From: a plasmid
Sequence record: AP029160.1
Direction: 5' to 3' (one strand)
Length of the DNA: 64,000 bases
Below, piece by piece: positions 2,272-34,225 of this stretch. The translations under genes and the position numbers were made by a program. The notes beneath the pieces were generated by a model. The model saw only the letters and a program-made list of their open reading frames with translations, did no database searches and was not told where the DNA came from. Numbering within the stretch: position 1 is the stretch's first letter; every line of letters begins with the position of its first letter.

Positions 2272-2570
2272 AGTCTTACACATATCATTTGACGTCATAC
2301 GCAACAGCTCTTCAGAAATAGGTAGGCGGTAAGTAACTCTTCCAAATAGGGCGATATTGGTATTTAAATAATTATAATTATTATTTAAACTAGAAAGTTT
2401 TTTTTTAATTCTGCCATTACTCAATTTAAAATGTATTTATTGGCAGTTTAATTTTGGCATGAGTTATGGCAGAGAACTATCCGCTAAAACAGATGCAAAA
2501 ACACCTCGAAGTTAATTATGCCAAAAACCTTGGTTTACGGCAGAAAATTTAAATAGATAGATGTAACGGC

Positions 2571-2720
2571 GCGCATTCCTAGGAGCATGGGCGCGCACTT
2601 ATCCGAAAATTTGGGCGCAAATTAATTGAAATTATCGTTTTGCTTCGGCGCACATTAAATGAAAACGAGAGAATCTCGGCGCACGCTATTTGAAATCGGG
2701 CGCAAGATAATTGAATCTAT
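2571..2720. repeat. Cluster of six GC-rich boxes (GGCGCGCA / GGGCGCAAATTAATTGAAA / CGGCGCACnnTATTTGAAATC), part of a repeated intergenic element
   Basis: Tandem ~22-33-bp units, each a GGCGC(G)CA core followed by TTGAAA-like AT-rich sequence. A near-identical ~90-bp block recurs at 34141..34225. Confidence 0.5.
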
Positions 2721-2830
2721 AATAATTCTCATTGAAGCCTAAAATAACTCAAAAATGTATCTCAAATAAATCATTTGAATTATAAAAATTATTAATTTAG
2801 AATATAAAAAAATAAAGAAGGATTAAAATT

Positions 2831-3568
2831 ATGTTATTTTTAAAAATATTAATTTTGTTTCTATTTAATATATATTTTTCATTGAATATTTATTCAAATG
2901 ATTTTTTAAAGGGTGGATGTGAATCAGATTTTCCACCTTATAATTTTTATGCGAATAATAAGCTAGTAGGTATAGACACAGAAATTATTAGTTTAGTATT
3001 AAATAAAATGGGTGTTCATTTTACTGTCGAAACATATCCTTGGTCAAGGGTTATTATATTGCTTCAAAAACAGGAATTAGATTTTGCATGGCAATTTATT
3101 GATACTCCAGAGAGAAGAATGGATTTTAGTTTAGCAGGACCAATAAGAAGTGGTGAAACTGTTTTTTTTGTACCTAAAGACTCTAAAATAAAATCTTGGA
3201 ATCAATTATCTGATTTTAAAAACCTTGTTATAGGAACTACAAGAGGTTATAAATATACTAATGAGTTTGATAATAATAAAGATTTAAAAAAAGAGGAATC
3301 TAATAACAATCAAACACTGGTTTTAAAAACTATTGGTAAAAGAGTTGATTTATCTATTGGAGATAAAAACACCATCCTTTATATATTAAAAACAACAAAT
3401 AATTTAAATAAAATCAGATTTTTAGAAAAACCATTAAAAATCGTACCAAGATTTGTTGGATTTTCTAAAAATCACTTTAAATTGTCTAAAAAATTCCAAT
3501 TAACTTTAGAGAAGGTTATTAACAAAAAAGAATATAATGATATAATAAATAAATATATCAATGATTAA
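2831..3568 (+). CDS. Family-3 periplasmic solute-binding protein (SBP_bac_3-like)
   Basis: 245 aa. Signal peptide, then a PBPb-like fold (YPWSR, spacing typical of amino-acid-binding proteins). Confidence 0.55.
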   Translation: MLFLKILILFLFNIYFSLNIYSNDFLKGGCESDFPPYNFYANNKLVGIDTEIISLVLNKMGVHFTVETYPWSRVIILLQKQELDFAWQFIDTPERRMDFSLAGPIRSGETVFFVPKDSKIKSWNQLSDFKNLVIGTTRGYKYTNEFDNNKDLKKEESNNNQTLVLKTIGKRVDLSIGDKNTILYILKTTNNLNKIRFLEKPLKIVPRFVGFSKNHFKLSKKFQLTLEKVINKKEYNDIINKYIND

Positions 3569-4332
3569 TTACAATATTTAATTAATTTATTTCCTATTAT
3601 TTTATTGTAAACACCATTTTTTCTTATTTTTTGCAATGAATTATTGAATTTTTTAAGAATTATTTTTGAATTTTTAAACTGTTTAGAAAATATAAGTCCA
3701 TTATTATTTTTCTCTTCAAAGTCATTTATTAAGGATTTAAAATTTAAAATCTCTTTATTAAAATTTTCTTTTATGGAATTTTCAAATACAAGTTCTTCTG
3801 CAATAGCTATATCAATTCGACCGGATTTTAATTTCCATAATAAACTATTATTATCATTTGATTCTTCAAAATTTATATTATTTCTTTCAAGTGCATTTTT
3901 ATAAGAAGCGCCTCTTAAAAAGCCAATAGTATATTTATTTAAATCAGAAATTTTATCAAATTTAAAATCTTTTCCATTATTACTTTTTTTATAATAGAAT
4001 AATTTACTTCTTCCACAAAAAATAGCTTCTGATAAAAAATATTTCTTTCGTCTTCCTGTGTTAAATCGATATGGAAAGGCAGCAAAAACAGTTCCAGACT
4101 CAACTAATTTTTCCGCTCTTACCCAAGGGTAAAAGTCAATTTTACAATCTATATCAGCCTCTTTACAAACTGCCATAATTATCTCTGAATAAAATCCAAA
4201 ATTATTTAACTTTTCTGAGACATAAGGAGGATATTCTCCAGTTACAAATGTAATAATCTCTTTAGAATAGACATTAAAATTAAATAATAAGACATTTGAA
4301 AATATTGCGATATAAATTATATGATTCTTCAT
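3565..4332 (-). CDS. Family-3 periplasmic solute-binding protein
   Basis: 255 aa. Signal peptide; paralogue of 2831..3568, 30495..31343 and 34303..35172 (FYPWVRAEKL motif). Confidence 0.55.
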   Translation of the reverse strand: MKNHIIYIAIFSNVLLFNFNVYSKEIITFVTGEYPPYVSEKLNNFGFYSEIIMAVCKEADIDCKIDFYPWVRAEKLVESGTVFAAFPYRFNTGRRKKYFLSEAIFCGRSKLFYYKKSNNGKDFKFDKISDLNKYTIGFLRGASYKNALERNNINFEESNDNNSLLWKLKSGRIDIAIAEELVFENSIKENFNKEILNFKSLINDFEEKNNNGLIFSKQFKNSKIILKKFNNSLQKIRKNGVYNKIIGNKLIKYCN

Positions 4333-4366
4333 TTATATATCCTATATTTGAATTTAATATTGATTT

Positions 4367-5326
4367 CTAACTTATTCCTAATTTAAGAATTTCTTGATTG
4401 AATTCTTGAGCCTTAGAACCGACTAATTGACCTTTTAAAAACAATCTTAGCTCATTATTTTTTGAATTTAACAAATCGCATAAATATCTATTTGTGTATC
4501 CATTTCTAGCTAATTTTGCATCAAGGCCATTTATTTCAGGAACAAGAACAGACTGAACAATTTCTTTCGTAACAGGTTTAACACCTATCATGTATGCTTT
4601 TTGTAAAGAACTGCTCAAATACTTTATCACTTGTAATGGAGTTAAAAGACTTTCACCAGGTAATTCTATTGCATCTTGATTTAATATATCTTTTGGTTTG
4701 ATATTTTCTGATACGGCTTGTTTTATTATCCATTCGCAATATTTCGCCTTGTTTTCAAGAACACTAAACATATGACTTCTTGCACCAATTTCTTCATTTT
4801 TGGGATGATTTAGTTCGTTGCTAAGCTTTGGTTGGCCTACAAGAATAAATGTAATTTTCCCTTCAGTATCTTTATCTAACTCTCGAATCTTTTTAAGTCC
4901 AATGAAGGTTTGTGTATTTAATTCATGTGCATCATCAATGAGTAAAACAAGATTTTTTTTGTGTTTGTTTAACAGCTCAATAAGCTTTCTTTCTTTTTTT
5001 TCAGCTTTCATGTAACTACCTATATTTTTTTCTTTTACAAGATCTGAAAAAAATGCGCTAAAAATAAGAGGAATTGAAACTGCTTGTTTTTCTGTGGAAA
5101 GAGAGCGACAAACAATTATATTCTTTTCTTCTTGTAATTTTTTTAAGGTTTTATCAAGCAAAGTCGTTTTACCAGAACATGATAAGCCTGTAACAACAAC
5201 AATTCCTCCTAATCTTATACTAAAATGTAAGTCATCCATTAGTTTTTTAGATTTTTCATTTTCAAAATAAGGGACATCTGAAAATCTTTTTAATATTCCA
5301 AAGTGATTCATCACATCAACTTCCAT
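4367..5326 (-). CDS. TniB/MuB-like AAA+ transposition ATPase
   Basis: 319 aa. Walker A GLSCSGKTTL, Walker B LLIDDAHEL. Paralogue of 24280..25263. Confidence 0.7.
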   Translation of the reverse strand: MEVDVMNHFGILKRFSDVPYFENEKSKKLMDDLHFSIRLGGIVVVTGLSCSGKTTLLDKTLKKLQEEKNIIVCRSLSTEKQAVSIPLIFSAFFSDLVKEKNIGSYMKAEKKERKLIELLNKHKKNLVLLIDDAHELNTQTFIGLKKIRELDKDTEGKITFILVGQPKLSNELNHPKNEEIGARSHMFSVLENKAKYCEWIIKQAVSENIKPKDILNQDAIELPGESLLTPLQVIKYLSSSLQKAYMIGVKPVTKEIVQSVLVPEINGLDAKLARNGYTNRYLCDLLNSKNNELRLFLKGQLVGSKAQEFNQEILKLGIS

Positions 5327-5343
5327 ATTGACCTCATTTATAT

Positions 5344-5990
5344 TTAATCATTCACACATGTTCTGATTGTAAAAAACATTTTAATCTTTTCCATAAGGAT
5401 CTTTTTACATAAAGATTCTGAAATAAATTGCTCTATTTGGTTTATTTGATTATCCAATAAAATTGAGAGAGGCTTTCCTAAATACATAGATATTGCTATT
5501 TTTGCATCTATTGGGTCTTTAAAAAATAATTCACTTTCATCATATTCTTTAAATGGAATAAATTTATCTACATTTTCTTCAATAAAACCTGTCTTCTTTA
5601 TTACATCTATTATTTCTTTATCTTCACAATTCATTGTCATTATTGCTCTAGGAATTTTAATACTTTTTACTAAAGAACTTATTTCTTCATCTTGTTTTTC
5701 ATTTTTTGTTTTTTTAAATGAGCGATAAGTTCCTAATGGAATAGGATCTTCTGACTTATAAAAAGGACCAAATTTTTCACCATTAAATTCAGCATAAACT
5801 TCATAATCAAAAACTCCTACTAAAATTGTTACTATTTCTCCAGCCATTTCTGGTAATAATTGATATTGAATTCCATCTAATTTAATTCTTGCATCTGAGC
5901 TGACTTTTCTCTCAACTGGTTCACGCGCCATTTGACAAAATTTCTCCCAAGAACACATTTTGCTGTAACCTTTTTCAGGTAAGTTTAATT
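5344..5990 (-). pseudogene. 3' fragment of a DDE (rve) TniA-like transposase, cut at its 5' side by the Tn3-family inverted repeat
   Basis: Homologous to the C-terminal half of 25274..26470 (MCSWEKFCQMAREPVERKV aligns with MCSWERFSSLVREPVERTV). Homology stops at ~5990, exactly at the GGGG inverted repeat. The ORF-track N-terminus (first ~45 aa) is read-through of the inverted repeat. Confidence 0.65.
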
Positions 5991-5991
5991 T

Positions 5992-6030
5992 GGGGTTATT
6001 TGCAAGAATCCCCGAGATTGTATACCAAAG
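5992..6030. repeat. Tn3-family terminal inverted repeat (IRL) GGGGTTATTTGCAAGAATCCCCGAGATTGTATACCAAAG
   Basis: 39 bp starting with GGGG, ~90 bp outside the tnpA stop. An inverted partner (37/39 identical) lies at 36954..36992. Confidence 0.6.
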
Positions 6031-6119
6031 CTGACTTATTATTGAAAATAGAGGATATCTTTGTTTTTGACGAGTATAAAATCCAAGTACCTGCGTGAGA
6101 ATCATAACGATGATGATTC

Positions 6120-9100
6120 TCACAGTTTATTTTTTACATGCTTTGATATTTTGTCCAAGTTTAATTTTCCTTCTTTTTTAGTGAACTCGAAGCGACCAAA
6201 TAAATTGATGTGCTGCCAAGCTACAGGAGACATGGATTTTATTATATCTTCATTCCATTTTCCGTGTGCCATTAAATTTGAAAATATAGATTCATTATAA
6301 TAAATAATACAAAGCGTAATAAAACGAGCACAAGCATCCCAGACTTGCTGTTCTTCTTCTGTTTTAAATTTTAATTTACCAAAATTTGCATACCCAACCG
6401 CTCGCTTTAATTGATGATAGCTTTCAACTCTGTTTAAAGCTTTTTGTACACCTTGTCTGAGTTCTGACGAATCTAAATAGTCAAGCAAATAGATGCTTTT
6501 TAGAATACGATTATATTCCCATAAAGCATTTTTTGTTTTACTTTTATGAGTATGCGAGCTTATCTTTGCTGTTATTATGCTCTGTGTAGTTTTTTTTATG
6601 CCAAGAGAATCATAATTTTTTGAATATTTTCCCATTCTTCAATTATAATTCTTGTATTAAATCTCTTTTTTGGTCTTAAATTTAAATGACTATAATCGCT
6701 TATATTTTTAAAAGACCCTATGGAATCAGTAAAAACATCATAAAAATCTTTATATCGGGGAGCGAATTGGTACCCAAATGTATACAAAATTGCAAAATTT
6801 ACATCATTAGTTCCATGTGTATCTGTTGAAAAAACTTCAGGATGAACGTCGCTTTTATTGCTAGATATTATATCATAAACATGATGGCTTTCATGATCAT
6901 TTGCGCTAATTATTTTTGAATTAGTAGGAAGGATATTACCAACCATTGAATATGAAACAATACCTTTTTTTCGACCAAAATATTTAGGTGAATGTCTTGC
7001 ATTAATAGTTGATACTTTTACCTCAAACTTTTGACCATCTCCAGCAAAATGAGCTAGCGAATTAATATGATACTTAGAAAAAATTGGTGATTTATAAATT
7101 TCGTTTGTGATTTTATCACAAGCATCTTTCACTGTTTCTAAGCGAATAAAGTTTTTTAAAGATGAGTATAAATTATTGTAAGAAAGATCTGAAACATCAG
7201 AAATTTTTTTAATACCCATATTAGTAGCTATAGCAATAATACAAGCAGTTATTGATTTTATATCTGCTTCTTCCTTTGTAAATCGACATAAAATATGCTC
7301 GAAACAGTCCATAATATTTGCGTTTTTTATGGCAAAATATATAACATCAATAAGATCTATTTGCTCCAATGACTCAAATAAGTATTGGTTTACATCCTCA
7401 GATGATGAAGGAGTTTTTACATTCCATCTTGATTTTTTTAATGTTTTATTTTGTTCAAAATATATATTTTCACCTTTTTCAATTTTATTGTTTACCGTTA
7501 TTAATTTTTTTTCGTATATTTCTTTTAGTTCATTTAGATGCTTTTCTGGTTTTTTATTGAAATTCTTTAGACCTAATTCATGTATAAAATTATCTTTATT
7601 TTCCCATTCTTTATTTGTAACTAATTCACTTGCTAGGCTTTTATATTTTACACTATCCGAACAGTAAATAGAACCTGATTCTAAATTTTCACAAATAAGC
7701 ATATAGATCAAATATTCACATCGATCATAGCTGACTTTATTGTCATTAATTATATATTTTAAAAATTTTTTCGGTATAAAATTTTCCTTAAATTCAAATA
7801 TATTATTTTTATCTAAGTTCTTTTTTGATATGTGATTTTTTAATATATTCAACGCTTCTATCAATTTTGAGTTTTTAGATAAAAATTCAAAATCTATATT
7901 CATAATAATTGGTCTTAAATTTTTTTTAATTTTTTGATTTATTATTTCTATATATTCCCATTCAAATTCACTTTTATCAAAACTTGCTTTATTTTCAATA
8001 TAATCAGCAACAACTGCTAAAAGATTTTCCCTCAATAACGTAAAGGCTCTACCTTTTGTTTTTAAAAAAGTTTCGCTTTCAGGTATTTTTTTATCTAAAA
8101 ATATTTTTAATATTTTACCTGCTTTAGGTACGTATTCATTCCCTTCTATCTTGTATTCTAGTATCTTTTCATCTGCATAAAGCTTATATTCCGCTTCAAA
8201 TAAATTTAAATTATACTTTAAAGCATTAATCATGTTATCATTATATTTATGAAATCTATGAAATAAAAAACAAATTATATATAATCTTACAATTTTTATA
8301 TCTCGAATATTTAATCTATATACAGAGTAAAATTCAACTAAAGAAGCATAATATTTTATACTTTCATTTGAAATCATAAGTCTTGGAATTAAATTTTTTA
8401 TTTTTATATAAAATTTTCTTATTTTACTACCTCTTATTATTTCTTCTTTTATTTCACCATATTTGAAATCTTTTGGGCTATGTTTTAGTGATGTAATTTC
8501 ATATGTTTTATCTTGTTTTAGTTGTATTAATTTATTTAACTCATTTGAAAATCCAATATCTATATTTTCTTCAATAATATTTATCAATCTTGATTCTTCT
8601 GAAAGCAATATTTTGCTTATAAAATCTTGCATGTATGAATATCTTGGAATAATAATTTTATTTTCATCCAAGAAATTAAAAAGTTCTCGAAAAATGTATT
8701 TTTGTTTTGCACTTATTTTAACTAGATTTAGTGCCTTTTCCTCTAATATTTCTAAATCTTTTTTATCAAAGTATTTATACTTGAAAATATCTAATATTGT
8801 TTTTTTATTTTCAGTTGATGTTATTTTACTTACATCTTGTATTTTTTTTATACTTAAAATACTATTCTTAAAATGTTTCTCAACAATAAATTTAATATCT
8901 TCTTCAACTTCATTTAATTTAAAAGAAAAAAATCTATATTTAAATTTGAAATATCCCAATTGTAAAATAAAATTAATTTTTGAATTTAAAATTCTGAGTT
9001 TATTTAAAGCAATATTTTCCTTGTGTGATAAATCAAAATAGATTTCTCTTTCTTCATCTGAAAATAGTGGTCTTTCATAAATTAATTTAATTTCATCAGG

Positions 9101-9296: not shown

Positions 9297-9851
9297 ATGA
9301 GCATGATTGGTTATGCAAGGGTAAGCTCCACAGGACAAAGTTTAGATATACAAATGGAAAAGCTAAAAAGTTGTCATAAAATTTTTAAGGAAAAAATAAG
9401 TGCTTCTTCTACAAAACGGGAAAAACTTGAAGCCTGCCTTGAATATCTTAGAGAAGGAGACACTCTCGTTGTTACTAAGATTGATAGACTTGCTCGTTCG
9501 ACATGGCATTTATGCCAAATTACGAATGAGTTAGTGCGAAAAAAGGTTAATCTCCAAGTTCTTGATCAAAATATTAATACAAATGACTCTTCTGGACGCT
9601 TGCTTTTTAATATGCTTGGTGCAATTGCTCAGTTTGAAACTGAGATTCGTTTGGAAAGGCAGATCGATGGAATCAATAGGGCAAAAAAAAATGGCGTGCA
9701 TTTTGGCAGACAAAAAAAATTAAATCCAAAAATAATTTTAGAACTTCAAAGTAAAAGAATTCAGATGATAAAAATTAAAGACTTAATGAAAGAATATGGA
9801 TTGTCAAAAGCTAGTATTTATCGATATCTTTCTATTGACTTAAATAATTAA
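9297..9851 (+). CDS. tnpR: Serine recombinase, resolvase TnpR
   Basis: MSMIGYARVSSTGQSLDIQ catalytic-Ser N-terminus and a C-terminal HTH (SKASIYRYLS). The ORF-track start at 9237 is probably too early. Confidence 0.8.
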   Translation: MSMIGYARVSSTGQSLDIQMEKLKSCHKIFKEKISASSTKREKLEACLEYLREGDTLVVTKIDRLARSTWHLCQITNELVRKKVNLQVLDQNINTNDSSGRLLFNMLGAIAQFETEIRLERQIDGINRAKKNGVHFGRQKKLNPKIILELQSKRIQMIKIKDLMKEYGLSKASIYRYLSIDLNN

Positions 9852-9943: not shown

Positions 9944-10235
9944 ATGCCTGAAATTAAATATAGAGAGACTACGCTGGAAGATTCCGATCAAACGGCATTA
10001 ATAATGAAAGAAAACTGGGGTGGTGAACCTCTAATAGTCAGGACTAGAAGTTATTTCCCTAGTAAATTAAACGGTATTATTGCTCAATCAGGTGAAAAAT
10101 GGATCGGATTTTTATTTTACGATATTCGAGGGGATGATTGTGAAATTATTGTCTTTGAAGTTTTCGAAAAGTTTAAGGGAATAGGAACAAAAATCTTAGA
10201 ACAACTTATAACAATTGCTCAAAATAAACTCTGCA
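9944..10235 (+). pseudogene. GNAT N-acetyltransferase, N-terminal part, interrupted by IS6
   Basis: IVFEVFEKFKGIGTKILEQLITIAQNKLC, then read-through into the IS6 inverted repeat (the 345-aa ORF in the track is this fusion). The C-terminal part is at 37080..37275 (-), past the 8-bp duplication ACTCTGCA. Confidence 0.65.
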
Positions 10236-11055
10236 GGTTCTGTTGCAAAAAATATATAAGTGAGAGTGGAGTAACTTTTTTTTGGAGTTGTTTGAGGGGA
10301 GTGGCGATGGATTTCAAGTGGAAGCATACTGATCGTATGATTATCATAATGGCAATCCGTTGGTATGTAGGCTACTCCCTAAGTTATAGGCAAGTAGAAG
10401 AACTTTTAGCAGAGCGTGGTATTTTTGTAGATCACACGACCATTCATCGTTGGATTGTGGAATACAGTCCAAAATTACTTAAGAAGTTTTATAAGCTTAG
10501 AAAGCGTATCTGTGGAAGTTGGCGAATGGATGAGACTTACATCAAAGTAAAAGGTGAATGGTGTTATCTCTATAGAGCCGTGGATAAGCATGGTCAAACG
10601 ATTGATATTTACCTTTCAAAACGAAGAGATACAACAAGTGCCAAACGTTTTTTCCAAAAATGCTTTCGTTCTTCTGGAATCCCAGAAAAGGTAAATATTG
10701 ATAAAAGTGGCTCTAATACGGCAGCATTAAAGGCTATCAACAAAGATCTTAAATCTGAAGATAAAGTTCTAATAAGACAAAATAAATATTTAAATAACCT
10801 TGTAGAGCAAGACCATCGATTTATAAAAAAGAAAGTAAAGCCTATGCTTGGTTTCTTCTCATTGAAATCGGCGAGAGCTACTTTAGCAGGTATTGAACTC
10901 CATCATATGCTCAGAAAAGGGCAATTCAAATTTAAAAGTCATTTGCCTATTTGGGAGCAATTTTGCTCCCTCGCTGGATAATTGCACCTACAGAGGACAT
11001 TCTTGAAAAGTAACAACCCAATGTTTCGTGGCTTCTAATTATTTGCAACAGAACC
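10236..11055 (+). mobile_element. IS6-family insertion sequence, copy A, variant 1
   Basis: 820 bp. 14-bp inverted repeats GGTTCTGTTGCAAA...TTTGCAACAGAACC. Transposase ~10307..10981 (MDFKWKHTDRMIIIMAIRWYVGYSLSYRQ..., IS26 Tnp-like DDE). Confidence 0.85.
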
Positions 11056-11237: not shown

Positions 11238-12005
11238 ATGTCTAAAAGGATAATCTTATTTACTTTTCTTTCTTTTATCGTTTTTAGCTGCTCAAAAGGT
11301 GAAGGTGGAAGCATTGATAAAAATTCGTCAGATGCAACGGCTAATAACGATCTTTGTAAAATTCATTCAACAGCAATAAATTCTAACGAAAAAATATCAT
11401 ATCAATACAATGCAATTAATTCACAATGGGAACTACTTCCAAGCTATCAAATTACACCTGATACAACACAAGTAAGTGGCACACCAATTCAATTAAGTCC
11501 AAACTCTCCAGAAATGATTATTAGTGGAAATGTTGGGCAAATTCCAAATGTCAACAATTTTATATCTTATACTTTAAGTAATAGTAATTTTGTTTATTTA
11601 ACTAAATTACCTTCAATACCAACTGATAAAAGTATCGTTCAAGTAAATACAAACTCTAATTACATAGCAACAATAGATTCAACATTATTTGGTGGTAATT
11701 TAGCTGACCTTAAAGGAAATGCTGGTAATTTATTTATCCATCATAGTGTAATAACTTCTCCACTCTATTTCATATATGATCAAGCTTCACAGTCTTGGAG
11801 CCTTGTAAATAGTGTTTTAAATTTAATGGCAGGAAGTATTGCTCAATTGAATGGGCAATTACCAAGTGGAAACTTTAGTGCAATTAATTTTAGTTTATCT
11901 GCATATAGCTTTGTAACACCAGTGTATTTACCTAAAAATCCAATTGATAAAATGAAAATTAATATAATTAATAATACGAATCAAAATGCGAATATTTGTT
12001 ACTAA
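11238..12005 (+). CDS. Asn/Ser-rich lipoprotein (lipobox VFSC), copy 1 of 3
   Basis: 255 aa. Signal peptide plus Cys lipobox. Identical copies at 41772..42539 (+) and 62232..62999 (-), each with the same 182-bp leader abutting an IS6 right end. Confidence 0.65.
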   Translation: MSKRIILFTFLSFIVFSCSKGEGGSIDKNSSDATANNDLCKIHSTAINSNEKISYQYNAINSQWELLPSYQITPDTTQVSGTPIQLSPNSPEMIISGNVGQIPNVNNFISYTLSNSNFVYLTKLPSIPTDKSIVQVNTNSNYIATIDSTLFGGNLADLKGNAGNLFIHHSVITSPLYFIYDQASQSWSLVNSVLNLMAGSIAQLNGQLPSGNFSAINFSLSAYSFVTPVYLPKNPIDKMKINIINNTNQNANICY

Positions 12006-12081
12006 ATTACAAATAAATTTTTGCAAATAATTAAGAGTTACGAATCAGAGGTGTGTTACTTTTCAATTAGGTTCCATTTAG
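12006..12081. repeat. Degenerate IS6-family right-end relic (inverted) between the lipoprotein stop and IS6 copy B
   Basis: TTGCAAATAATTAAGAGTTACGAATCAGAGGTGTGTTACTTTTCAATTAGG aligns with the reverse complement of the IS6 right end (TTGCAAATAATTAGAAGCCACGAAACATTGGGTTGTTACTTTTCAAGAATG) but lacks the terminal GGTTCTG. Also present beside copies 2 and 3. Confidence 0.5.
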
Positions 12082-12901
12082 GGTTCTGTTGCAAAAAATA
12101 TATAAGTGAGAGTGGAGTAACTTTTTTTTGGAGTTGTTTGAGGGGAGTGGCGATGGATTTCAAGTGGAAGCATACTGATCGTATGATTATCATAATGGCA
12201 ATCCGTTGGTATGTAGGCTACTCCCTAAGTTATAGGCAAGTAGAAGAACTTTTAGCAGAGCGTGGTATTTTTGTAGATCACACGACCATTCATCGTTGGA
12301 TTGTGGAATACAGTCCAAAATTACTTAAGAAGTTTTATAAGCTTAGAAAGCGTATTTGTGGAAGTTGGCGAATGGATGAGACTTACATCAAAGTAAAAGG
12401 TGAATGGTGTTATCTCTATAGAGCCGTGGATAAGCATGGTCAAACGATTGATATTTATCTATCAAAACGAAGAGATACAACGAATGCCAAACGTTTTTTC
12501 CAAAAATGCTTTCGTACTTCTGGAATCCCAGAAAAGGTAAATATTGATAAAAGTGGCTCTAATACGGCAGCATTAAAGGCTATCAACAAAGATCTTAAAT
12601 CTGAAGATAAGATCTTAATAAGACAAAATAAATATTTAAATAACCTTGTGGAACAAGACCATCGATTTATAAAAAAGAAAGTGAAGCCTATGCTTGGTTT
12701 CTTCTCATTGAAATCGGCGAGAGCTACTTTAGCAGGTATTGAACTCCATCATATGCTCAGAAAAGGGCAATTCAAATTTAAAAGTCATTTGCCTATTTGG
12801 GAGCAATTTTGCTCCCTCGCTGGATAATTGCACCTACAGAGGACATTCTTGAAAAGTAACAACCCAATGTTTCGTGGCTTCTAATTATTTGCAACAGAAC
12901 C
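12082..12901 (+). mobile_element. IS6-family insertion sequence, copy B, variant 2
   Basis: 820 bp, same inverted repeats. Transposase ends at 12827 (variant with TNAKRFFQKCFRTS, KILIRQ). Confidence 0.85.
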
Positions 12902-12902
12902 C

Positions 12903-13700
12903 ACTTATAAACCTAAAGATAAGGCCAAAGTAGAAGTCGGGGTACAAGTAGCACAACGCTGGATCCTTGCTAAACTCAGAAAACAATTATTTTACTCAAT
13001 TCAAGACATTAATGAAGCCATCTCTCCATTACTTGAAGCTTTAAATCATAAAAAGATGAAACACTTAAATGTTTCTAGATATGAATTGTATGAGCAATAT
13101 GAAAAAAACCAACTCAAACCCCTACCTAAAGAACACTTCGAATTATATGAGTGGCGAAAAGCAAAAGTAAATATAGATTACCATGTCCAATTTGAGTGTA
13201 ATTATTACAGCGTTCCTTGTCATTATGTACATAAAAATGTTGAAATACGAATAACAACTAATACAATTGAAATATATTTATCTAATAAAATGATTGCCGT
13301 TCATAAAAGACTTTTTTTAGTTGGCAAATATTCAACATACAAAGAGCACATGCCTCAGTCTCATCAGAAACATGTTGAGTGGACTCCAGAAAGAATGTTG
13401 AAATGGGCCTCCAATATAGGAGTTTCAACAAAAACATGTTTTGAAATTATGATTTCCAGAACTCAACACCCAGAACAAGGATTTCGTTCTTGTCTAGGTA
13501 TACTTCGCCTTGGCCAACAATATTCTAATCTAAGATTAGAAAACGCTTGTTTAAGAGCCCTAAATACCGACCAAGTGAGTTTCAAATCAGTGAAAAATAT
13601 CTTAAAAAACAACTTAGATAAAATAATAATAACTGAAACAAAAAAGAATGTCATAAATATTGAACACGAAAATATACGTGGTTCTGATTATTATAATTAA
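12903..13700 (+). pseudogene. istA: IS21-family istA, 3' portion, 5'-truncated by IS6 copy B
   Basis: The frame is open from the IS6 end (YKPKDKAKVEVGVQVAQRWILAKLRKQLFYSIQDINEAISPLLEALNHKK...), the typical IstA C-terminal region. Confidence 0.7.
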
Positions 13701-18944: not shown

Positions 18945-19030
18945 TTTCCCTTTAAAGTTAAAAAAAAGCCCCAACAAAGCTGAGACTTTGTGAACTGCTC
19001 GACCCTAAAGGGAGCGAGCTTCTGAAGTCA
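18945..19030 (-). ncRNA. Putative TnpB omega-RNA (right-end RNA) overlapping the tnpB 3' end
   Basis: Inferred from the architecture of TnpB systems. The hairpin at ~18993..19013 overlaps the tnpB stop. Confidence 0.3.
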
Positions 19031-20369
19031 TAGGAATCAGCGGATTAGATTGCTCTAATCTCGTCTTACATATTCCTCGTCCAGCTTTACTTCGGCTAAT
19101 TCCTAGCCTAGTTCTCGTCTTAGCTTTCGGCTTTGACAAAAGAAATTGAACACCTCTTTTTGCTATTATTTTTGCTGCATTGATATCAGCATTGTCATGA
19201 TTTCCGCATAATAGACATAAGAAATTATCTTGTGTTTTTCTATTATCGGCGTGAGTGTGGCCACAATTGGCACATTCTTGACTAGAATAATGAGGTGAAA
19301 CTTTTATAACTAATTTCCCATATTTTTTAGCTTTATATTCTAAAAATTCTATTGTTTTTGCTAATCCTTTAGAGAGTAATTCTCTATTTAACCCCGCCTT
19401 GGCCTTTCTCATATTTGGCAAATAATTTCCATTTTCATCTTGCTTTGGCTTAGGAGATTTTGTCATATTTTTTAGTTTTAAATCTTCTACTGCAAATATT
19501 TTTGCCTCAGAATTTGCAATAGAATGTGAGACTTTATGACAAAAATCATGTCTTATATTACTTATTTTAGAATGAATTTTGGCAATTCTATTTTTTGTTT
19601 TATTTCTACTTGTAGATCCTTTTTTCTGACGTGCTAATTTTCTTTGGTATTTTTTTAACTTTTTTTGCTTAAGTTTAATTTGATTTTTTAACTTATCATC
19701 GAAATCATAACAAGATTGATTGCTAGTTTGAAATGGAATTACGATACCTCGATCAATTCCAACGGTTAGAGTATTTAGTGATGTTTCATCTAAATTGGAA
19801 TACTCATCCAATAATTCTTGCTCTGATTTTCCTGTATCTTCTACTTCATAACAGAAAGATACATACCATTTTTTATTTTTCTTACCAATTACAATTTGTT
19901 GAGGATTTCCAAATTCTCTATGCGCTTTAAATTTTAAAACACCCAAACTATTTTTCTTAGTACCAATTATAAGATTTTTTAAAACAACTCCATCATCGCT
20001 TATTTCATCTTTAAATTTAAATAATTCACTTGTAAGCAATACAGTATCTTTTATTCCTTTTTTCTTTTTGCGTGGATTATTAGCTATTCCTTTAAAGAAA
20101 CGTTGTTTTGCTGTATACCAAATAGAAGATGCATTACGCAAAACTTGAGAAGGACATTGATTTAACCACTCTCTTTCATCATTTTTAAAATGAGAATAGG
20201 CTTGATTAATAGATATTTTATCGCCAGTACTTTTAAAAATGTTATAATTTTGATTATCTTCTGACACTTTGCAATTATAAATTACTCTAGCACAACCTAT
20301 CCATTGAGAAAGTATGTGAACTTGCTCAGCGGTTGGATATGCTCTAAATTTTACACCACAATTTGCCAT
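19005..20369 (-). CDS. tnpB: TnpB (OrfB) RNA-guided nuclease of IS200/IS605
   Basis: 454 aa. RuvC-like core and C-terminal zinc finger CANCGHTHADNRKTQDNFLCLLCG. Confidence 0.85.
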   Translation of the reverse strand: MANCGVKFRAYPTAEQVHILSQWIGCARVIYNCKVSEDNQNYNIFKSTGDKISINQAYSHFKNDEREWLNQCPSQVLRNASSIWYTAKQRFFKGIANNPRKKKKGIKDTVLLTSELFKFKDEISDDGVVLKNLIIGTKKNSLGVLKFKAHREFGNPQQIVIGKKNKKWYVSFCYEVEDTGKSEQELLDEYSNLDETSLNTLTVGIDRGIVIPFQTSNQSCYDFDDKLKNQIKLKQKKLKKYQRKLARQKKGSTSRNKTKNRIAKIHSKISNIRHDFCHKVSHSIANSEAKIFAVEDLKLKNMTKSPKPKQDENGNYLPNMRKAKAGLNRELLSKGLAKTIEFLEYKAKKYGKLVIKVSPHYSSQECANCGHTHADNRKTQDNFLCLLCGNHDNADINAAKIIAKRGVQFLLSKPKAKTRTRLGISRSKAGRGICKTRLEQSNPLIPMTSEARSL

Positions 20370-23520: not shown

Positions 23521-24036
23521 TTATGCTACCAAGTAATCATTATGAATATTGAATTTCTTGATAAATATTAAGCAATGTGCCATCCAAATAAAATCCTCAA
23601 ATAGTTTAGGATTTCTTTCATATCGAACATTGACCTTTCGATAATTTTTTAAATGTGCATTTGTTCTTTCCACTATATATCGTTTTTTTAACCTTCGTGC
23701 TTCTCGACCATCTTGGGTTATGTTTTTACGATTTAGTTTATGATAAGCAACAAGGGTTACTCCCATCTTTTTACACTTCATATCTAACTTATCTGAGTCA
23801 TATGCTCGATCACCCAAAATATATTTAGGCATTGTGTGTGAAATAGAATTTTTTAAAGTTTTTATTAGCAATTGAGATTCATGAGGATTAGCAGAGTCAA
23901 TGTGAAGAGAAATCAATAAACCCTCTTTATCTACCATTTGCATGACTTTTGTGCCTTTTCCTACTTTAGTATTTCCAATCTTACTGCCACTCATTGCAGC
24001 TTTTACAAAAGTTCCATCTACTACAAAAGTATTCAA
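23521..24036 (-). pseudogene. IS5-family (IS4/IS5 DDE) transposase, C-terminal fragment
   Basis: LGDRAYDSDKL...IVERTNAHLKNYRKVNVRYERNPKLFEDF. The N-terminal half is absent; the Tn552-like left end begins 50 bp upstream. Confidence 0.55.
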
Positions 24037-24087
24037 ATTTTCATTGAAATTCTTGGTATATATTTCAAAAAGTATCTGATAGGTATC

Positions 24088-24260
24088 TGTTACGGCTCAC
24101 GAACATCGGAGGGTCTGGATCGCAATCAAAGACAAATTGGGCTCAAATTAAATGCGAATACAAAACTCTTCAAACTCACTTTAAATGCGAATGAGCTCAT
24201 TCGCAAAGCACTCGGGATCGCAATCATCAACTTTGACTCACTTTAAATGCGAATGAAAAA
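24088..24260. repeat. Left inverted end with repeated TTAAATGCGAATG and GGATCGCAATC boxes
   Basis: Aligns with the reverse complement of 28380..28553. Confidence 0.6.
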
Positions 24261-24279
24261 TTGCTTTAAAAGCAAATTA

Positions 24280-25263
24280 TTATCTTGTTGCTCCAATTGT
24301 AATACCAAGATGCGTTAGCTCTTCATCAATTTCATGAGCTCTTCCAGCTGGTAATCTTCCTTTTTGATAATCTTTTATTTCTGAAACAGATACTCCAATA
24401 CTTTCTGATAGTCGACCTATTGGATAACCTTGTCGTGTTAATCGTGATTCTAAAGAATCAAAGTTTTTTCCAATTACATCACAAACCGTATTTTCTGAAA
24501 TAGGTTTTTCAGCAGTTAAATATCCTTCTGATAAAACCCTCCATGTGTAACATTCCATTTCTAAAGGTGTTTTAAGCTTTGAAATAAGAGCTTTTCTAGC
24601 TCCAGCAGTGAAGATATCTGAGATTTTAACATTTGGTTCAAGACAAGAAGAAAGCATCCAATCAAAAAACTTTTCCTCACATCCATCAATTCCCTTCATA
24701 ATAACATGCTGGGTTCGCATTCCTATTTCTTGCATAGATGCTCTGTGGAGTTCAAATTTTAATCTAGGATGCCCTACAAGGACAATGGCAAGCCTTCCTC
24801 CAGCTTTGGAAATAAGTTCCATTAATCTTTTGAGTTCTATAAGTGTCTGCATTGGAAGATCATGTTCTTCGTCTATAAATATTGCTACGGGCACGTTACG
24901 TCTTGTAATCAACTTTTGTATTTGCCTCATTCTGAGCTCAGTACGCTTATGAAGAGTAATAGTGTCTTCATCTGCCAGATCTGCAACCATGGCATCGATT
25001 AAGGTATTTAAATTAACTTTATTTTTATCAATTGAAAGACTAGATACAACAAGGATGTTCCCCTCTTTCTCTAAATCGATCATTATTCTGTGTAGTGAGC
25101 TTGTTTTTCCCACCCCAATCGGACCTGTTAAAGCAATGAGATCTCCTGATGGCATATATTTTTTAAGATCTTCAAACATTGGACCATAGCTTTCATCCAC
25201 AAAATATCCTGCATTTTTAAGTTCTTTTGTTAAGCCGTAGTATTGCATCATTTCAATTATCAT
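24280..25263 (-). CDS. TniB/MuB-like AAA+ transposition ATPase
   Basis: 327 aa. Walker A GPIGVGKTSSL, Walker B IFIDEEHDL. Confidence 0.75.
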   Translation of the reverse strand: MIIEMMQYYGLTKELKNAGYFVDESYGPMFEDLKKYMPSGDLIALTGPIGVGKTSSLHRIMIDLEKEGNILVVSSLSIDKNKVNLNTLIDAMVADLADEDTITLHKRTELRMRQIQKLITRRNVPVAIFIDEEHDLPMQTLIELKRLMELISKAGGRLAIVLVGHPRLKFELHRASMQEIGMRTQHVIMKGIDGCEEKFFDWMLSSCLEPNVKISDIFTAGARKALISKLKTPLEMECYTWRVLSEGYLTAEKPISENTVCDVIGKNFDSLESRLTRQGYPIGRLSESIGVSVSEIKDYQKGRLPAGRAHEIDEELTHLGITIGATR

Positions 25264-25273
25264 TTTTACATCC

Positions 25274-26470
25274 TTATGAACTTTCTTGCCTAAGATTTAG
25301 TTCCTGTTGAATCCATTCGAGGATTTTGTCTTTTTCTAAGGTCTTTGACAAGAAGCTATGAAGATCATTTAATTTTTCTAGAGATAGTTTTCCTAGTGGT
25401 ATACCTATAGTGTGAGCAATGAACTTTCTTGCGGCATATTCTGAAGGGAATCGAATTTCGTTAAATGGGTCAGGATCAACAAAAGGACGCATACGGATGG
25501 TTTCTGAAGGTAAACTTTTATTTTCATTGTTTGCAGGAAGATGAATTGTATCCATAGTTTCTCTTGGTATAGATAGTTCGTTCGCTATTTTTTCTATTTT
25601 ATCAATTCTTCTTTCAGCTTCTGTTTTTTTATAAGATCTGTATTTATTTAATTGCAACGGGTAGCCTGTTTGCTGGAAAGGGCCGTATTTTGCTCCTTCA
25701 AATTCTATAAAAATGTCCGTTTCTAATAAACCATTCCAAACAATTACTGTTTTTCCCATTAACTCATGATCAACGGAATAAATAATACCATCAAGAGAAA
25801 TAGTACAATCAGAATTCACTGTTCTTTCAACTGGTTCTCTAACAAGAGAAGAAAAGCGCTCCCATGAGCACATTTGTCGAATTCCTTCTTCAGGGATATT
25901 TTTAATCCAATCCTCAATTCGAGAGCATTCTTGGCTACGATGAGGCATCTGTGAATAGCGAATTAAAAACGGGAAAAGCCATTTATTAGCTTCTTTTTCA
26001 TCTTTTGGTTTATGGAAATGGTATAAAGTTTCATGAAGCTCTTTGACAGTACGAAATGGTCTTTCAACTTTTCCCTTTGATCTTGCGGTAATTCTTCTAC
26101 CATCCGAATTTCTAGGCATATGGCATCTCAATTCGATTCCTAAATTTTGCATCGCTCGTTGAAAAATCGCACTTTTTGCGATGGGTCCATTATCCATATA
26201 AATAACCTTTGGGATGCCTTGAAAAGGAAAATTCTCATTCTCTTTTTTTGACATAGCATTAAATAAAAACATTAATGCTGCAATAACATCTTCTCCATAA
26301 ACAACATGATATTCTTGATAAGAAACTCCACTCCTGTCATCAACAACACTGTAAAGCATTAGTATTGCTTTACCATGCTTAGGATCCACCCATTCTGGCA
26401 TTATTTCTATATATTTAAGTAGTTTTCGTAGATTAATTAAGGCTTCTTGTGGAATTAGTTTCCGATTCAT
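25274..26470 (-). CDS. DDE (rve-fold) TniA/Tn552 p480-like transposase
   Basis: 398 aa. VIYMDNGPIA...KGKVERPFRTVKE places the catalytic D and E in an integrase core. Confidence 0.7.
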   Translation of the reverse strand: MNRKLIPQEALINLRKLLKYIEIMPEWVDPKHGKAILMLYSVVDDRSGVSYQEYHVVYGEDVIAALMFLFNAMSKKENENFPFQGIPKVIYMDNGPIAKSAIFQRAMQNLGIELRCHMPRNSDGRRITARSKGKVERPFRTVKELHETLYHFHKPKDEKEANKWLFPFLIRYSQMPHRSQECSRIEDWIKNIPEEGIRQMCSWERFSSLVREPVERTVNSDCTISLDGIIYSVDHELMGKTVIVWNGLLETDIFIEFEGAKYGPFQQTGYPLQLNKYRSYKKTEAERRIDKIEKIANELSIPRETMDTIHLPANNENKSLPSETIRMRPFVDPDPFNEIRFPSEYAARKFIAHTIGIPLGKLSLEKLNDLHSFLSKTLEKDKILEWIQQELNLRQESS

Positions 26471-27147
26471 GAAAACCCCACTAAATTTTTATTTAAAGCT
26501 TTAAAAGAAGAATAATTTTTCATTATATCATAATAAGTGCTTCTGGATATCCGAAATTTCTTGCAAAGATCGCTAACTGTTCTTTCCCCTTTACAGGACT
26601 CAACTATCAAAGAGCTAATATCTAGTTCTCCCAATGCTTTAGGACGCCCCCTTCCTTTCATTTTTCCTTGTGCTTTTGCAATTGCAACACCTTCTCTTAC
26701 CCTTTCGCAAATGATATCTCTTTCTAACTGAGCAAATACAGCCATGATTCCTACCATTGCTTGGCTAAAATGATCGTCTTTTGTGGAATCAATGGCTGGT
26801 TCAGAGAGCGATTTATAAGCTATTTTTCTTTGTGAAAGATCTTCTAGAGTCTTCATAATCCCAGAAAGCGTTCTTCCTAATCTATCAAGCCGATAGACAA
26901 AAAGAGTATCTCCTTTTTGTAACTTTGCTAAAAGGGACTTAAGTTGGGGCCTTTCCATGCTTTTTCCCGTAGCGACTTCTGATATGATTTCTTGGGCCCC
27001 AGCTGCTTTTAAGGCTTTAATTTGTAAAGATAAATTTTGATCTGAAGTTGAAATCCGAGCATAACCATAAATTCCCATTTTGGCCTCATTTTTTGGACAG
27101 GGTTTTTCGGACATAAAAAATCTAGTAAATTCAATACATGAAAACAA
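26467..27147 (-). CDS. Serine recombinase (resolvase/BinL-like)
   Basis: MGIYGYARISTSDQNLSLQ...DRLGR...C-terminal HTH. The likely true start is the M at ~27078. Confidence 0.8.
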   Translation of the reverse strand: MFSCIEFTRFFMSEKPCPKNEAKMGIYGYARISTSDQNLSLQIKALKAAGAQEIISEVATGKSMERPQLKSLLAKLQKGDTLFVYRLDRLGRTLSGIMKTLEDLSQRKIAYKSLSEPAIDSTKDDHFSQAMVGIMAVFAQLERDIICERVREGVAIAKAQGKMKGRGRPKALGELDISSLIVESCKGERTVSDLCKKFRISRSTYYDIMKNYSSFKALNKNLVGFS

Positions 27148-27264
27148 GTACTCTTGGTTGTAGTCAAAGATACCTCATATTTTTTGAAATTGTTTCGAAT
27201 ATTTCTAATATTGCATTTATTTCGTTTATGTGGTAGAATATGCTGTGAGTTAAGAAAGGATATT

Positions 27265-27741
27265 ATGAAAATAAGCACTCTAACATTGATAGAAGAATAT
27301 ACACCAACAGTTGAGGATACTAAAAAAGCTGAAATTGTAATTAAAGATATTTCTAATTTCAGTGAAAAGAAAAAGATTAAAAATCTTGAGCTTGCGTTAA
27401 ACTTCCAAGGTAATATAAAGAATTTACAACTTCCATTAAGTATTATGCCATTTTTAATGGATATATTAAATGAAGTTGCTCATGGAAATTCAGTTACTAT
27501 TGTGCCATTTAATAAGGAATTTACAACGCAAGAAGCAGCGGATATTTTAAACGTATCACGCCCATTTATTATTAAAATTCTTGAGTCAGGACAAATACCA
27601 TTTCATAAAGTTGGTGCACACAGAAGAATCAAAGCAAAAGATATTATGGCATTCAAGAAAAAAATGAATAAAAAAAGTAAAGATGCACTTGAAAAATTGG
27701 CAAAAATTTCTCAAGAAGATAAACTTGGTTATGAAGACTAA
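27265..27741 (+). CDS. HTH DNA-binding protein (MerR/excisionase-type), putative antitoxin
   Basis: FTTQEAADILNVSRPFIIKILESGQIPFHKVGAHRRI. Immediately upstream of the PIN gene with a 2-nt gap. Confidence 0.55.
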   Translation: MKISTLTLIEEYTPTVEDTKKAEIVIKDISNFSEKKKIKNLELALNFQGNIKNLQLPLSIMPFLMDILNEVAHGNSVTIVPFNKEFTTQEAADILNVSRPFIIKILESGQIPFHKVGAHRRIKAKDIMAFKKKMNKKSKDALEKLAKISQEDKLGYED

Positions 27742-27743
27742 AA

Positions 27744-28322
27744 ATGAACAGTAATAATTTTGTTGTTATTTATGACGCCTGTATTTTATATCCAGCAAAT
27801 TTAAGAGATTTTTTACTCCATTTGGCTTTAACAAATCAATTTAAAGCTAAATGGAGTGATGATATACATGAAGAATGGATTAATAATTTACTAAAGAATA
27901 GACCTGATTTGAAAATAGAAAGGTTAAATAAGACAAGAGAGCTGATGGAATTGGCTGTGCCTGATGCTAATATTCCAAAATTAAGGTACCAAGAAATATT
28001 AACATCAATTTCTTTACCAGATCCTGACGATAAGCATGTATTAGCAGCAGCAATTGTATGTCAAGCTCAATATATTGTAACTTTTAATTTGAAAGATTTT
28101 CCTAAGAAAATATTAAGTAAATATGAAATTGAAGCAATTCACCCTGATGACTTTATTTGTCATTTAATAAATCTTTCTCCTGAAAATGTACTTGATTCTA
28201 TTTCTAATCAATTAAATAGCTTGAAAAACCCTCCAATAAAAATGAATGATTTGATAAAAATCCATAAAAAAAGCGGTCTTCACAAGAGTATGCAACAAAT
28301 AGAAACCATGCTTGATATTTAA
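27744..28322 (+). CDS. PIN-domain protein, putative toxin
   Basis: 192 aa. VVIYDACILYPANLRDFL with the N-terminal acidic residue of PIN; further D/E residues at the conserved spacing. Confidence 0.6.
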   Translation: MNSNNFVVIYDACILYPANLRDFLLHLALTNQFKAKWSDDIHEEWINNLLKNRPDLKIERLNKTRELMELAVPDANIPKLRYQEILTSISLPDPDDKHVLAAAIVCQAQYIVTFNLKDFPKKILSKYEIEAIHPDDFICHLINLSPENVLDSISNQLNSLKNPPIKMNDLIKIHKKSGLHKSMQQIETMLDI

Positions 28323-28379
28323 ATTTGAAATGATTTACTAAATTTTTTCTTCTGATGATATAAAAATCATTCATCAGCG

Positions 28380-28553
28380 ATTTTTCATTCGCATTTAATC
28401 TGAGCCCATGTTTATGATTGCGATCCCAAGTGCATTGCGAATGAGCCCAATCGCATTTAAAGTGAGTTTGGAGAGTTTCATATTCGCATTTAATTTGATC
28501 CCAATTTGTCTTTGATTGCGATCCAGACCCTCCGATGTTCGTGAGCCGTAACA
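28380..28553. repeat. Right inverted end of the Tn552-like element
   Basis: Three ATTCGCATTTAA boxes, two GATTGCGATCC boxes, and a terminal ...CCGTAACA. Confidence 0.6.
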
Positions 28554-29026
28554 GTTAACGGTTATTATACAAATATATTTTTACCGGATGGGAAAGGAGA
28601 GGAAATTAAATTATTAGAAGAGAAATGTAGAAAAGAGGTGAGCAAATATAATAAAAAATATTTATATGCCCAACCAATTTTTTATTACTTTGGTTTAATT
28701 CCATCTAGTTATTCATTATTTGGAACAAATATCAAGAATACTATTTCATTATCAAATGGATACTTGCCTAAAAAAATAGATTATGATTATATGAATAGTT
28801 TTATAATAGTACCAAAACGTTCTATTAAATCTCTTAATTAGAATATTTCAAAATCAAATTGGAATAAAGAAAAACTTAGGCTTTTAAGTTTAATTAACTT
28901 AAATAGAGTTTAAAATTAATTTACCACAAAAATCTGAAAAAGATGTATTAGAGGATTTAAAAATAAAGCTCAAAAATAAAAAAGAGTTAATAGAAACTGC
29001 GAATCTCATAAAGAATAGAAATTATT

Positions 29027-34139: not shown

Positions 34140-34140
34140 A

Positions 34141-34225
34141 AAATTTGGGCGCAAATTAATTGAAATTATCGTTTTGCTTTGGCGCACGCTATTTGAAATC
34201 GGGCGCACAATAATTGAATTTATAC
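34141..34225. repeat. Second copy of the GC-box intergenic element (three boxes)
   Basis: AAAATTTGGGCGCAAATTAATTGAAATTATCGTTTTGCTTTGGCGCACGCTATTTGAAATCGGGCGCACAATAATTGAAT, near-identical to 2612..2715 minus a 31-bp internal duplication. Confidence 0.5.

Follow-up and report, generated by a model that had tools for sequence, protein, structure and literature searches.

Positions 24,088–28,553 of a 64,000-nucleotide plasmid stretch (sequence record AP029160.1; "the window" below means this whole stretch) very probably hold a disabled ISAzs36-like transposon that carries a helix-turn-helix (HTH)–PIN gene pair as cargo and has suffered a deletion in its transposase gene. This copy, from Pigmentibacter ruber, is 4,466 bp long, is bounded by 173-bp inverted repeats that are 91% identical, and encloses five genes, of which the resolvase, a 398-aa transposase and the ATPase lie on the minus strand and the HTH and PIN genes on the plus strand. 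It is an ordinary, defective, cargo-bearing member of a family that is already listed in databases, widespread and little studied. An initial annotation of this DNA had described a transposon composed of a serine resolvase, a DDE transposase and an AAA+ ATPase, a description that our analysis supports, with a Mu/TnsB-type fold for the transposase. The parts of the element are as follows.

24088..24260, plus strand: ATPase-proximal terminal inverted repeat, 173 bp, with tip TGTTACGGCTCACGAAC, two A-type and three B-type boxes
24280..25263, minus strand: AAA+ ATPase, 327 aa (AAA_22, E 2.4e-13)
25274..26470, minus strand: internally deleted DDE transposase gene, 398 aa instead of 550, lacking residues 18–169
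26467..27078, minus strand: serine resolvase, 203 aa from MGIYGYARIS (PF00239, E 5.5e-36)
27079..27264: spacer between the divergently transcribed resolvase and HTH genes, where promoters and res presumably lie
27265..27741, plus strand: HTH_17/excisionase-type DNA-binding protein, putative antitoxin, 158 aa from MKIS
27744..28322, plus strand: PIN_3 domain protein, putative toxin, 192 aa
28380..28553, minus strand: terminal inverted repeat on the resolvase side, 174 bp, matching the other end in tip and box layout

The 398-aa transposase gives weak matches to the rve, IS481 and Mu-transpos_C_2 models, and the best match for its catalytic core, the NCBIfam IS481 model (E 2.7e-10), lies far below that model's cut-off. 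With this protein as query, a collection of 5.8 billion proteins yielded 3,311 relatives, the best 120 of which are almost all 540–560 aa long, and the query aligns only with the last ~380 residues of these relatives and with their first 17. The best match, P0001, is a 550-aa protein that is 99% identical and contains 152 extra residues: it reads ...INLRKQLDSF...(152 residues)...SQSDLKYIEIM..., where the window protein reads ...INLRKLLKYIEIM... The contig that encodes P0001 (L001) aligns at 97–98% on either side of a 456-bp segment absent from the window, and the two flanking alignments overlap by 3 bp at the junction (26417–26419), a CTT microhomology. The 398-aa form is the product of an in-frame 456-bp deletion, not a natural compact transposase.

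Alignments of 15 and 103 family members identify three invariant acidic residues, D164 (CWxFD), D245 (YxDNG) and E288 (GKVERPF). The 398-aa protein retains D245 (YMDNG), E288 (KGKVERPF), the beta-barrel and the C-terminal parts, whereas D164, whose counterpart in the alignment with Tn552 p480 is the WQAD-motif Asp, and all predicted N-terminal helices lie inside the deleted segment, leaving the DDE triad incomplete. Because this invariant Asp and these helices are gone, the window copy is non-autonomous, its transposase a catalytically incomplete and DNA-binding-deficient remnant. The initial annotation had staked its reading on the DDE, Walker and serine-recombinase motifs being present, and for the DDE motif this copy fails, the first catalytic Asp being deleted. 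It had also described a transposase without an N-terminal HTH domain; the domain is indeed absent, but as the outcome of a 456-bp deletion relative to the 550-aa homologue rather than as a design feature.

The deleted protein is an exact match to BFD33567.1 of P. ruber (Silvanigrellaceae, Bdellovibrionota). Within its 90%-identity cluster the 398-aa form is represented by the window protein only, found on two contigs including L088, while the other members comprise five proteins of 550 aa, one annotated as 516 aa and one 224-aa fragment; no further genome carrying the deleted form was found. L088 is a public contig of 4,418 bp that is 100% identical to window positions 24112–28529. We considered it as a sign that the deleted element is multi-copy and discarded the idea, as the contig in all likelihood ends where it does because the tips are perfect repeats, and so is uninformative on copy number. 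All five genes between the ends are free of stops and frameshifts, and no gene has decayed. Because the other four genes are intact and the differences from L001 are mostly synonymous (pN/pS 0.03–0.35), the deletion is probably recent.

The element belongs to the IS481 superfamily of ISfinder/NCBI naming, and within it to the family that NCBI, using an ISfinder name, labels "IS481-like element ISAzs36". P0001 is 47% identical over 551 residues to the ISAzs36-family transposase on pAB510f of Azospirillum sp. B510, and the window transposase matches family residues 1–17 and 170–550; the Azospirillum ATPase and the window ATPase share 36% identity over 323 residues. An alignment-based scan of named genomes (GTDB) returned 80 family loci, and a GTDB genome scan with the single protein P0001 found nothing. 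Most of the 80 loci show the order resolvase, transposase, ATPase on one strand, as does the window copy, and their hosts include cyanobacteria, alpha-, beta-, gamma- and deltaproteobacteria, and acidobacteria. Many of these loci are whole contigs of 3.5–4.2 kb, as expected for a repeated element. The three genes were also found on 791 plasmid records, 392 of them from Salmonella, and on pSLT-type virulence plasmids a family element adjoins spvR. Plasmid records label the resolvase gene "recombinase family protein", the transposase "IS481 family transposase" or "DDE-type integrase/transposase/recombinase", and the ATPase gene "ExeA family protein" or "AAA family ATPase". Beyond the naming of ISAzs36 in plasmid maps, no paper describing the family was found in the searchable literature.

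The ends of the window copy are highly structured. Inverted-repeat arms of 182 nt (24084–24265 and 28376–28557) are complementary at 91%, and the tip TGTTACGGCTCACGAACATCGG, matched twice in the window where 0 matches are expected, opens both ends, at 24088 on the plus strand and at 28553 on the minus strand. Each end carries three B-type boxes, TTAAATGCGAAT, at 24148, 24181 and 24243 on the left and at 28387, 28449 and 28482 (minus strand) on the right, the one at 28449 with one mismatch, and two A-type boxes, GGATCGCAATCA, at 24117 and 24215 and at 28415 and 28513. Over the whole window, B-type boxes number 9 against 1.6 expected and A-type boxes 4 against 0.16 expected; box 2 additionally makes the palindrome TGCGAATGAGCTCATTCGCA. 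These results bear out the inverted repeats at 24088..24260 and 28380..28553, and the three plus two boxes per end, that had been noted in the initial annotation. Its view that the ends are unusually long is contradicted by relatives whose ends, of ~165–190 bp, follow the same box plan.

Relatives' inverted ends measure 75–255 nt, the shortest coming from contigs that break within the ends, and most begin TGTAGCGGC. ISAzs36-like ends are typically ~165–190 bp with the tip TGT(A/T)(A/G)CGGC, and the window copy fits this description. Elements from cyanobacteria, proteobacteria, Salmonella and Azospirillum share with the window copy a common plan of a tip box, ...GCAATCA boxes near +30 and +127, and ATTAA(A/T)TGC-type boxes near +59, +92, +113 and +153. 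In the window copy the A-type boxes lie at offsets of ~+29 and +127 from the tip and the B-type boxes at ~+60, +93 and +155, in agreement with distant ISAzs36-like members and with a sister element from Fluviispira. Multi-box ends of ~170 bp are the family norm, and the box arrays fit a role as transposase-binding sites. The end tip GCTCACGAACATCGGAGGGT was also searched for in metagenomes, without a match. In the L001 copy (run SRR26992862) the ATPase-side end, at 4502–4600, is shortened to 78 bp, keeps a single box of each type and differs in its tip, TGTAGCAGC; a deletion between direct repeats of the boxes would account for this. The L001 copy adjoins a penicillin amidase gene, an insertion context different from that of the window copy.

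Target duplications were counted in 23 relatives with both tips placeable. A perfect 6-bp duplication is present in nine of them and was recognised in a tenth (L068) by manual reading; in four relatives the duplication matches at five of six positions. Of the 46 flanks, 45 have TA at their centre. Because nine or ten of the 23 relatives have a perfect duplication and TA is nearly constant, we conclude that these elements duplicate 6 bp at NNTANN as a family trait. Both flanks of the window copy, GGTATC (24082–24087) and GTTAAC (28554–28559), fit this motif, and they are equal at four of six positions. The left flank lies within a truncated gene.

23521..24087, minus strand: C-terminal two-thirds of an IS5-family transposase gene (DDE_Tnp_1, E 1.1e-17)

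The IS5_3 model is matched here from position 117 of 258, the first ~100 residues being missing, and the frame is open to the element edge at 24087. To the right of 28553, a search for the N-terminal half found nothing that continues the frame, and a search for other copies of either flank within the window found none. Of the earlier suggestion that the element had landed in this gene, the cut at the left edge remains; the other half does not lie across the element, so the insertion was not a simple one. Because the flanks mismatch and half an IS5 gene stands at one edge, we infer a rearrangement after insertion, for which recombination between two copies and an intramolecular replicative event are candidates.

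The cargo consists of two small adjacent genes with the DNA-binding protein encoded upstream and the PIN protein downstream, the layout of a type II toxin-antitoxin system, and the PIN gene starts 2 bp past the HTH stop codon. The HTH protein matches HTH_17 (E 1.7e-12) and TIGR01764 (E 1.1e-14); its mechanical open reading frame (ORF) starts at 27154 (TTG), and the 158-aa gene is the one called on the identical contig L088. The PIN protein matches PIN_3 (E 1.3e-9) and the RSP_2648-family PIN model (E 2.2e-38) and has a precomputed match to PF26343, VapC50_C. These domains, the gene arrangement and the VapC50_C match suggest a putative toxin-antitoxin pair of VapBC50 type, in line with the toxin-antitoxin-type cargo proposed earlier. 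The pair is absent from the 80 distant family loci and is therefore lineage-specific cargo.

Other family members use the interval that holds the HTH–PIN pair, from the resolvase-side end to the resolvase gene, as a recurrent cargo slot. The Azospirillum element carries a VapB/VapC pair there, and the Salmonella element a carbonic anhydrase gene, which, beyond a match in length, we presume likely to be mig-5. That carbonic anhydrase gene measures 741 bp, the same length as mig-5, a 741-bp gene on Salmonella plasmids (PMC12393075). On Salmonella plasmid pSARA13 (Typhimurium, pSLT type; L082, 1668–6285) the family element is 4.6 kb long with 170-bp ends, lies directly upstream of an IS630 element and spvR, and is flanked by CCTAGT and AATAGC without duplication. 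Closer to the window copy is a sister element on the Fluviispira sanaruensis plasmid AP019369 (~40.4–54.1 kb; L089, ~272–8838), which shares the 173-bp ends and whose intact 550-aa transposase belongs to the window protein's 90%-identity cluster. Where the window copy has the HTH–PIN pair, this element has a two-component system, made up of a GAF-HisKA hybrid kinase and a response regulator, together with a VOMI-domain protein, so that one transposition module has exchanged its cargo within a single bacterial family.

The remaining two core proteins look complete. The resolvase has the residues R8, S10, D65, R66 and R69 and a C-terminal HTH that weakly resembles the IS481 N-terminal HTH, and its stop codon overlaps the tnpA start (ATGA), an overlap that recurs in L001 and in the Salmonella and Azospirillum elements. 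The ATPase has a Walker A motif (GPIGVGKTS) and a Walker B motif (FIDEEHD), its residues G47, G52, K53, T54, D131 and E132 are kept in the family alignment, and it is 100% identical to an nr protein from P. ruber; NCBI labels its relatives "ExeA family" or "AAA family ATPase". Described earlier as a TniB/MuB-like AAA+ ATPase, it holds to the AAA+ part of that name through its AAA_22 match, while a Pfam search gave no PF05621 TniB match. A structural model of the ATPase (pLDDT 85) matches ORC/Cdc6 and several TnsC structures at E values of about 1e-7 to 1e-6, and a PDB sequence search with it gave generic P-loop matches only. For the transposase, a model built on 103 sequences (pLDDT 80) matches ShCAST TnsB (E 9e-17), IS21 IstA (1e-14), Tn7 TnsB and MuA (8e-9), and a PDB sequence search gave no match. 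PADLOC reported weak matches of the HTH protein and the ATPase to MADS components, which we judged generic.

In translationally coupled genes of fixed order, the family encodes a resolvase, a ~550-aa transposase of MuA/TnsB/IstA fold and a ~325-aa ATPase. In the mechanism that we propose, transposase protomers would bind the boxes and pair the ends, and the ATPase would capture target DNA and activate the transposase, like MuB, TnsC and IstB. The 3' ends would be joined to a 6-bp staggered target with central TA (NNTANN), and because there is no TnsA-like second nuclease, the product would be a cointegrate, which the resolvase would resolve. This lineage acquired the HTH–PIN pair in the family's usual cargo slot, and the 456-bp in-frame deletion with CTT microhomology disabled the window copy. 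With both ends intact, that copy could be mobilised at most in trans, by an intact relative.

Several observations weigh against this account. The window copy has no target duplication, as the initial annotation had already reported from flanks that were one base off, and more than half of the 23 family elements examined lack a perfect one, which leaves gaps in the understanding of how these elements integrate and rearrange. A search of 27060–27290 for res and for promoters identified no res site, with no convincing subsite repeats and with promoter-like matches at chance level. Any AAA+ protein of the initiator clade would be expected to give the fold matches seen for the ATPase model; the PIN protein scores under the NCBIfam curated cut-off; and no experiment on any family member was found in the searchable literature.

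Alternative explanations were weighed against the same evidence. An autonomous compact transposon, whose transposase naturally dispenses with a DNA-binding domain and whose ends are recognised by the HTH of the resolvase or of the cargo protein, would account for the uninterrupted, in-frame ORF and its translational coupling with the resolvase gene, and for the weak likeness of the resolvase C-terminal HTH to that of IS481. We hold it to be highly improbable, and already largely refuted, since 456 bp are missing relative to a 99%-identical 550-aa homologue, the missing segment includes the invariant first catalytic Asp, and the 398-aa form is unique in a 90%-identity cluster with five members of 550 aa. 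A descent from Tn5053/Tn402 (TniABQ-R) or Tn7-like elements with loss of the target selector TniQ seems barely conceivable. It shares the parts list of a Mu-type beta-barrel DDE transposase, an AAA+ ATPase, a serine resolvase and TGT tips, but Tn402 TniA (E 0.006) and TniB (E 0.001) match over short stretches only, and the ATPase has no PF05621 match, while a genuine TniB in the window scores 2.5e-34. Gene order, end length and the 6-bp duplication differ as well. The relatives were not scanned for TniQ, but many whole elements are only ~3.7–3.8 kb long, a length that three core genes and two ~170-bp ends fill, leaving no room for a fourth gene.

A further alternative, which we regard as unlikely, is an immobilised remnant kept for a function, be it multimer resolution by the resolvase, addiction or defence by the HTH–PIN pair, or dominant-negative action of the truncated transposase on incoming relatives. 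Truncated transposase forms act as dominant-negative inhibitors in Tn5 and in P elements. The deletion is in frame and spares the start codon and the whole C-terminal half, which would contact the ATPase or other protomers; the five genes have no stops or frameshifts, and substitutions relative to L001 are mostly synonymous. An in-frame outcome nevertheless has a one-in-three chance, the low pN/pS mostly dates from before the deletion, and the deleted form was found in no other genome. The reading of a disabled ISAzs36-like transposon, with its cargo and its deleted transposase, is the one that we prefer.

More speculatively, and with little probability in our estimation, the deleted transposase, which still has the half for multimerisation and ATPase contact, would have been kept as a trans-dominant inhibitor that shields this part of the genome, laden with mobile elements, from further family copies, and the family would be an experimentally untouched major branch of the Mu/Tn7/IS21 type. 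If true, that branch would be recognisable by ends of 170 bp that are conserved, a 6-bp target centred on TA and an unchanging cargo slot. Two more immediate consequences concern annotation. The "IS481 family transposase" of P. ruber should be annotated as a deletion allele within a 4.5-kb transposon, not as a novel minimal transposase. The family can also be given a working definition, comprising the gene order, ends of 165–190 bp with their box layout, the 6-bp NNTANN duplication and the cargo slot. This definition allows elements that are currently annotated as three unrelated genes to be delimited in cyanobacterial genomes, on Pseudomonas and Klebsiella plasmids, and on Salmonella virulence plasmids. 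The residual interest lies in the whole family, which has seemingly never been studied experimentally.

The surrounding window has ~30% G+C, is crowded with mobile DNA, and contains a second member of the family.

2562..6123, minus strand: second, distant family member, with an ATPase gene at 4367–5326 and a C-terminal transposase fragment at 5344–5985

The paralogue noted earlier is real (4367–5985), its ATPase being 29% and its transposase fragment 35% identical to those of the element described above. It has a multi-box end at 2562–2720 (TGTAACGGCGCGC...) with four GGCGCAMATTAAWTGAAA boxes at 2614–2716, its cargo, two SBP_bac_3 solute-binding-protein genes, lies on the ATPase side, and a Tn3-family transposon truncates its transposase gene. 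A tip-less relic of a paralogue-type end lies at 34140–34222, with no adjoining transposition genes; its three GGCGCA...TTGAA boxes are near-identical to 2608–2720, minus one 31-bp unit. The Tn3-family transposon itself (6120–9851) has its transposase split on the minus strand into ORFs of 858 aa (6596–9172) and 171 aa (6120–6635), probably by a frameshift, and includes a divergent serine resolvase (9237–9851), after which follows an IS6/IS240-type DDE gene (9944–10981).

A genuine Tn5053/Tn7-type pair is found at 58341–60091, consisting of a TniA-like DDE protein, N-terminally short (Mu-transpos_C, E 5.5e-11), and a TniB gene at 59561–60091 (PF05621, E 2.5e-34) that is truncated at ~60057 by one of the insertion sequences with a 229-aa ORF. 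Further mobile genes comprise a TnpB RNA-guided endonuclease gene at 19005–20369 (E 2e-69) and two group II intron reverse transcriptase/maturase genes at 50643–52166 and 55505–56659, the second of which is truncated. A set of ORFs of 255, 268 and 214 aa occurs twice (11238–13700 and 41772–44090), with the 255-aa ORF present a third time at 62232, and the 229-aa ORF occurs five times (15915, 37350, 40826, 60057 and 63256). These repeated ORFs point to several multi-copy insertion sequences and to a region resembling a mobile-element graveyard or plasmid.

The initial annotation had called the element Tn552/Tn5053-like. Tn552 has the same three-protein parts list, and its p480, taken from pN315, is the best of the characterised elements tested, although the relation extends only over the core (27% identity over 139 residues, E 4e-8) and not over the full length of the protein. 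The resolvase beside p480 in pN315 is 34% identical to the window resolvase and its gene overlaps the p480 start, and Tn552 p271 is, like the window ATPase, an AAA_22 protein; a partner AAA+ ATPase and a serine resolvase are common to several families and not diagnostic. The 480-aa p480 gives clear Mu-transpos_C and rve matches, whereas those of the ISAzs36-like family are weak. Tn552 has multi-site ends of ~116 bp and duplicates 6–7 bp, and its canonical order p480-p271-binL is unlike the ISAzs36-like order; the pN315 copy is rearranged. The gene after p480 in pN315 (L087, 13288–14046) fuses an AAA_22 N-terminus to the C-terminal two-thirds of a serine resolvase, which points to a deletion or recombination event inside this copy of Tn552.

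The Tn5053/Tn402, Tn7-like, IS21 and Mu elements are alike in transposase fold, TnsB, IstA and MuA being the best PDB matches, in having a partner AAA+ ATPase, in their TGT tips and in having several transposase sites per end. Sequence similarity to them is not significant, and the window element lacks TniQ, TnsA and TnsD; with Tn402 the similarity amounts to the short TniA and TniB stretches given above. Tn402 itself has the genes tniABQC, 25-bp repeats and 5-bp direct repeats (PMC4739549), set against the 173-bp inverted repeat, the missing PF05621 match and the absence of a TniQ gene in our element. Tn7-like elements without TnsA usually carry a separate resolvase (PMC11406308).

Tn6049 of Cupriavidus metallidurans CH34, a multi-copy 3.5-kb element with a "gspA" ATPase (PMC2864759), is reported to have 12-bp inverted repeats and a 4-bp duplication (PMC4739549). 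It is likewise small, with an IS481-type DDE transposase (479 aa) followed by an ExeA/GspA-like AAA_22 ATPase (277 aa). We tested it as a candidate resolvase-transposase-GspA element of 3.5 kb and set it aside: the relation is only distant (pMOL28, pHS87a; transposase 21% identity over the core, E 3e-4; ATPase E 1e-4), and its first gene encodes a 181-aa protein without a resolvase domain. ISPa40, returned by the literature search, is a Tn3-family element and irrelevant. Bordetella IS481 shares the TGT ends, which are common to IS481-family elements (PMC11406308). The NCBIfam IS481 model also tops the matches of the window catalytic core, and IS481 is, by contrast, a ~1-kb single-gene element without ATPase, resolvase or long ends. 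Its 6-bp duplication at NCTAGN resembles the NNTANN of the ISAzs36-like family.

Taken together, these comparisons and the modelled folds indicate an element that would work like the Mu/Tn7/Tn552/IS21 class and falls outside both the Tn552 and the Tn5053 family. It is with the ISAzs36-like elements that the likeness is comprehensive, covering end-to-end homology, gene order, overlapping genes, ~170-bp ends with TGTAGC-type tips, box layout, NNTANN flanks, and cargo between the resolvase-side end and the resolvase gene. From these elements the window copy differs in its 456-bp transposase deletion, in carrying HTH_17–PIN_3 cargo where others have VapBC or carbonic anhydrase, and in its host, a member of the Bdellovibrionota with a genome of ~30% G+C.

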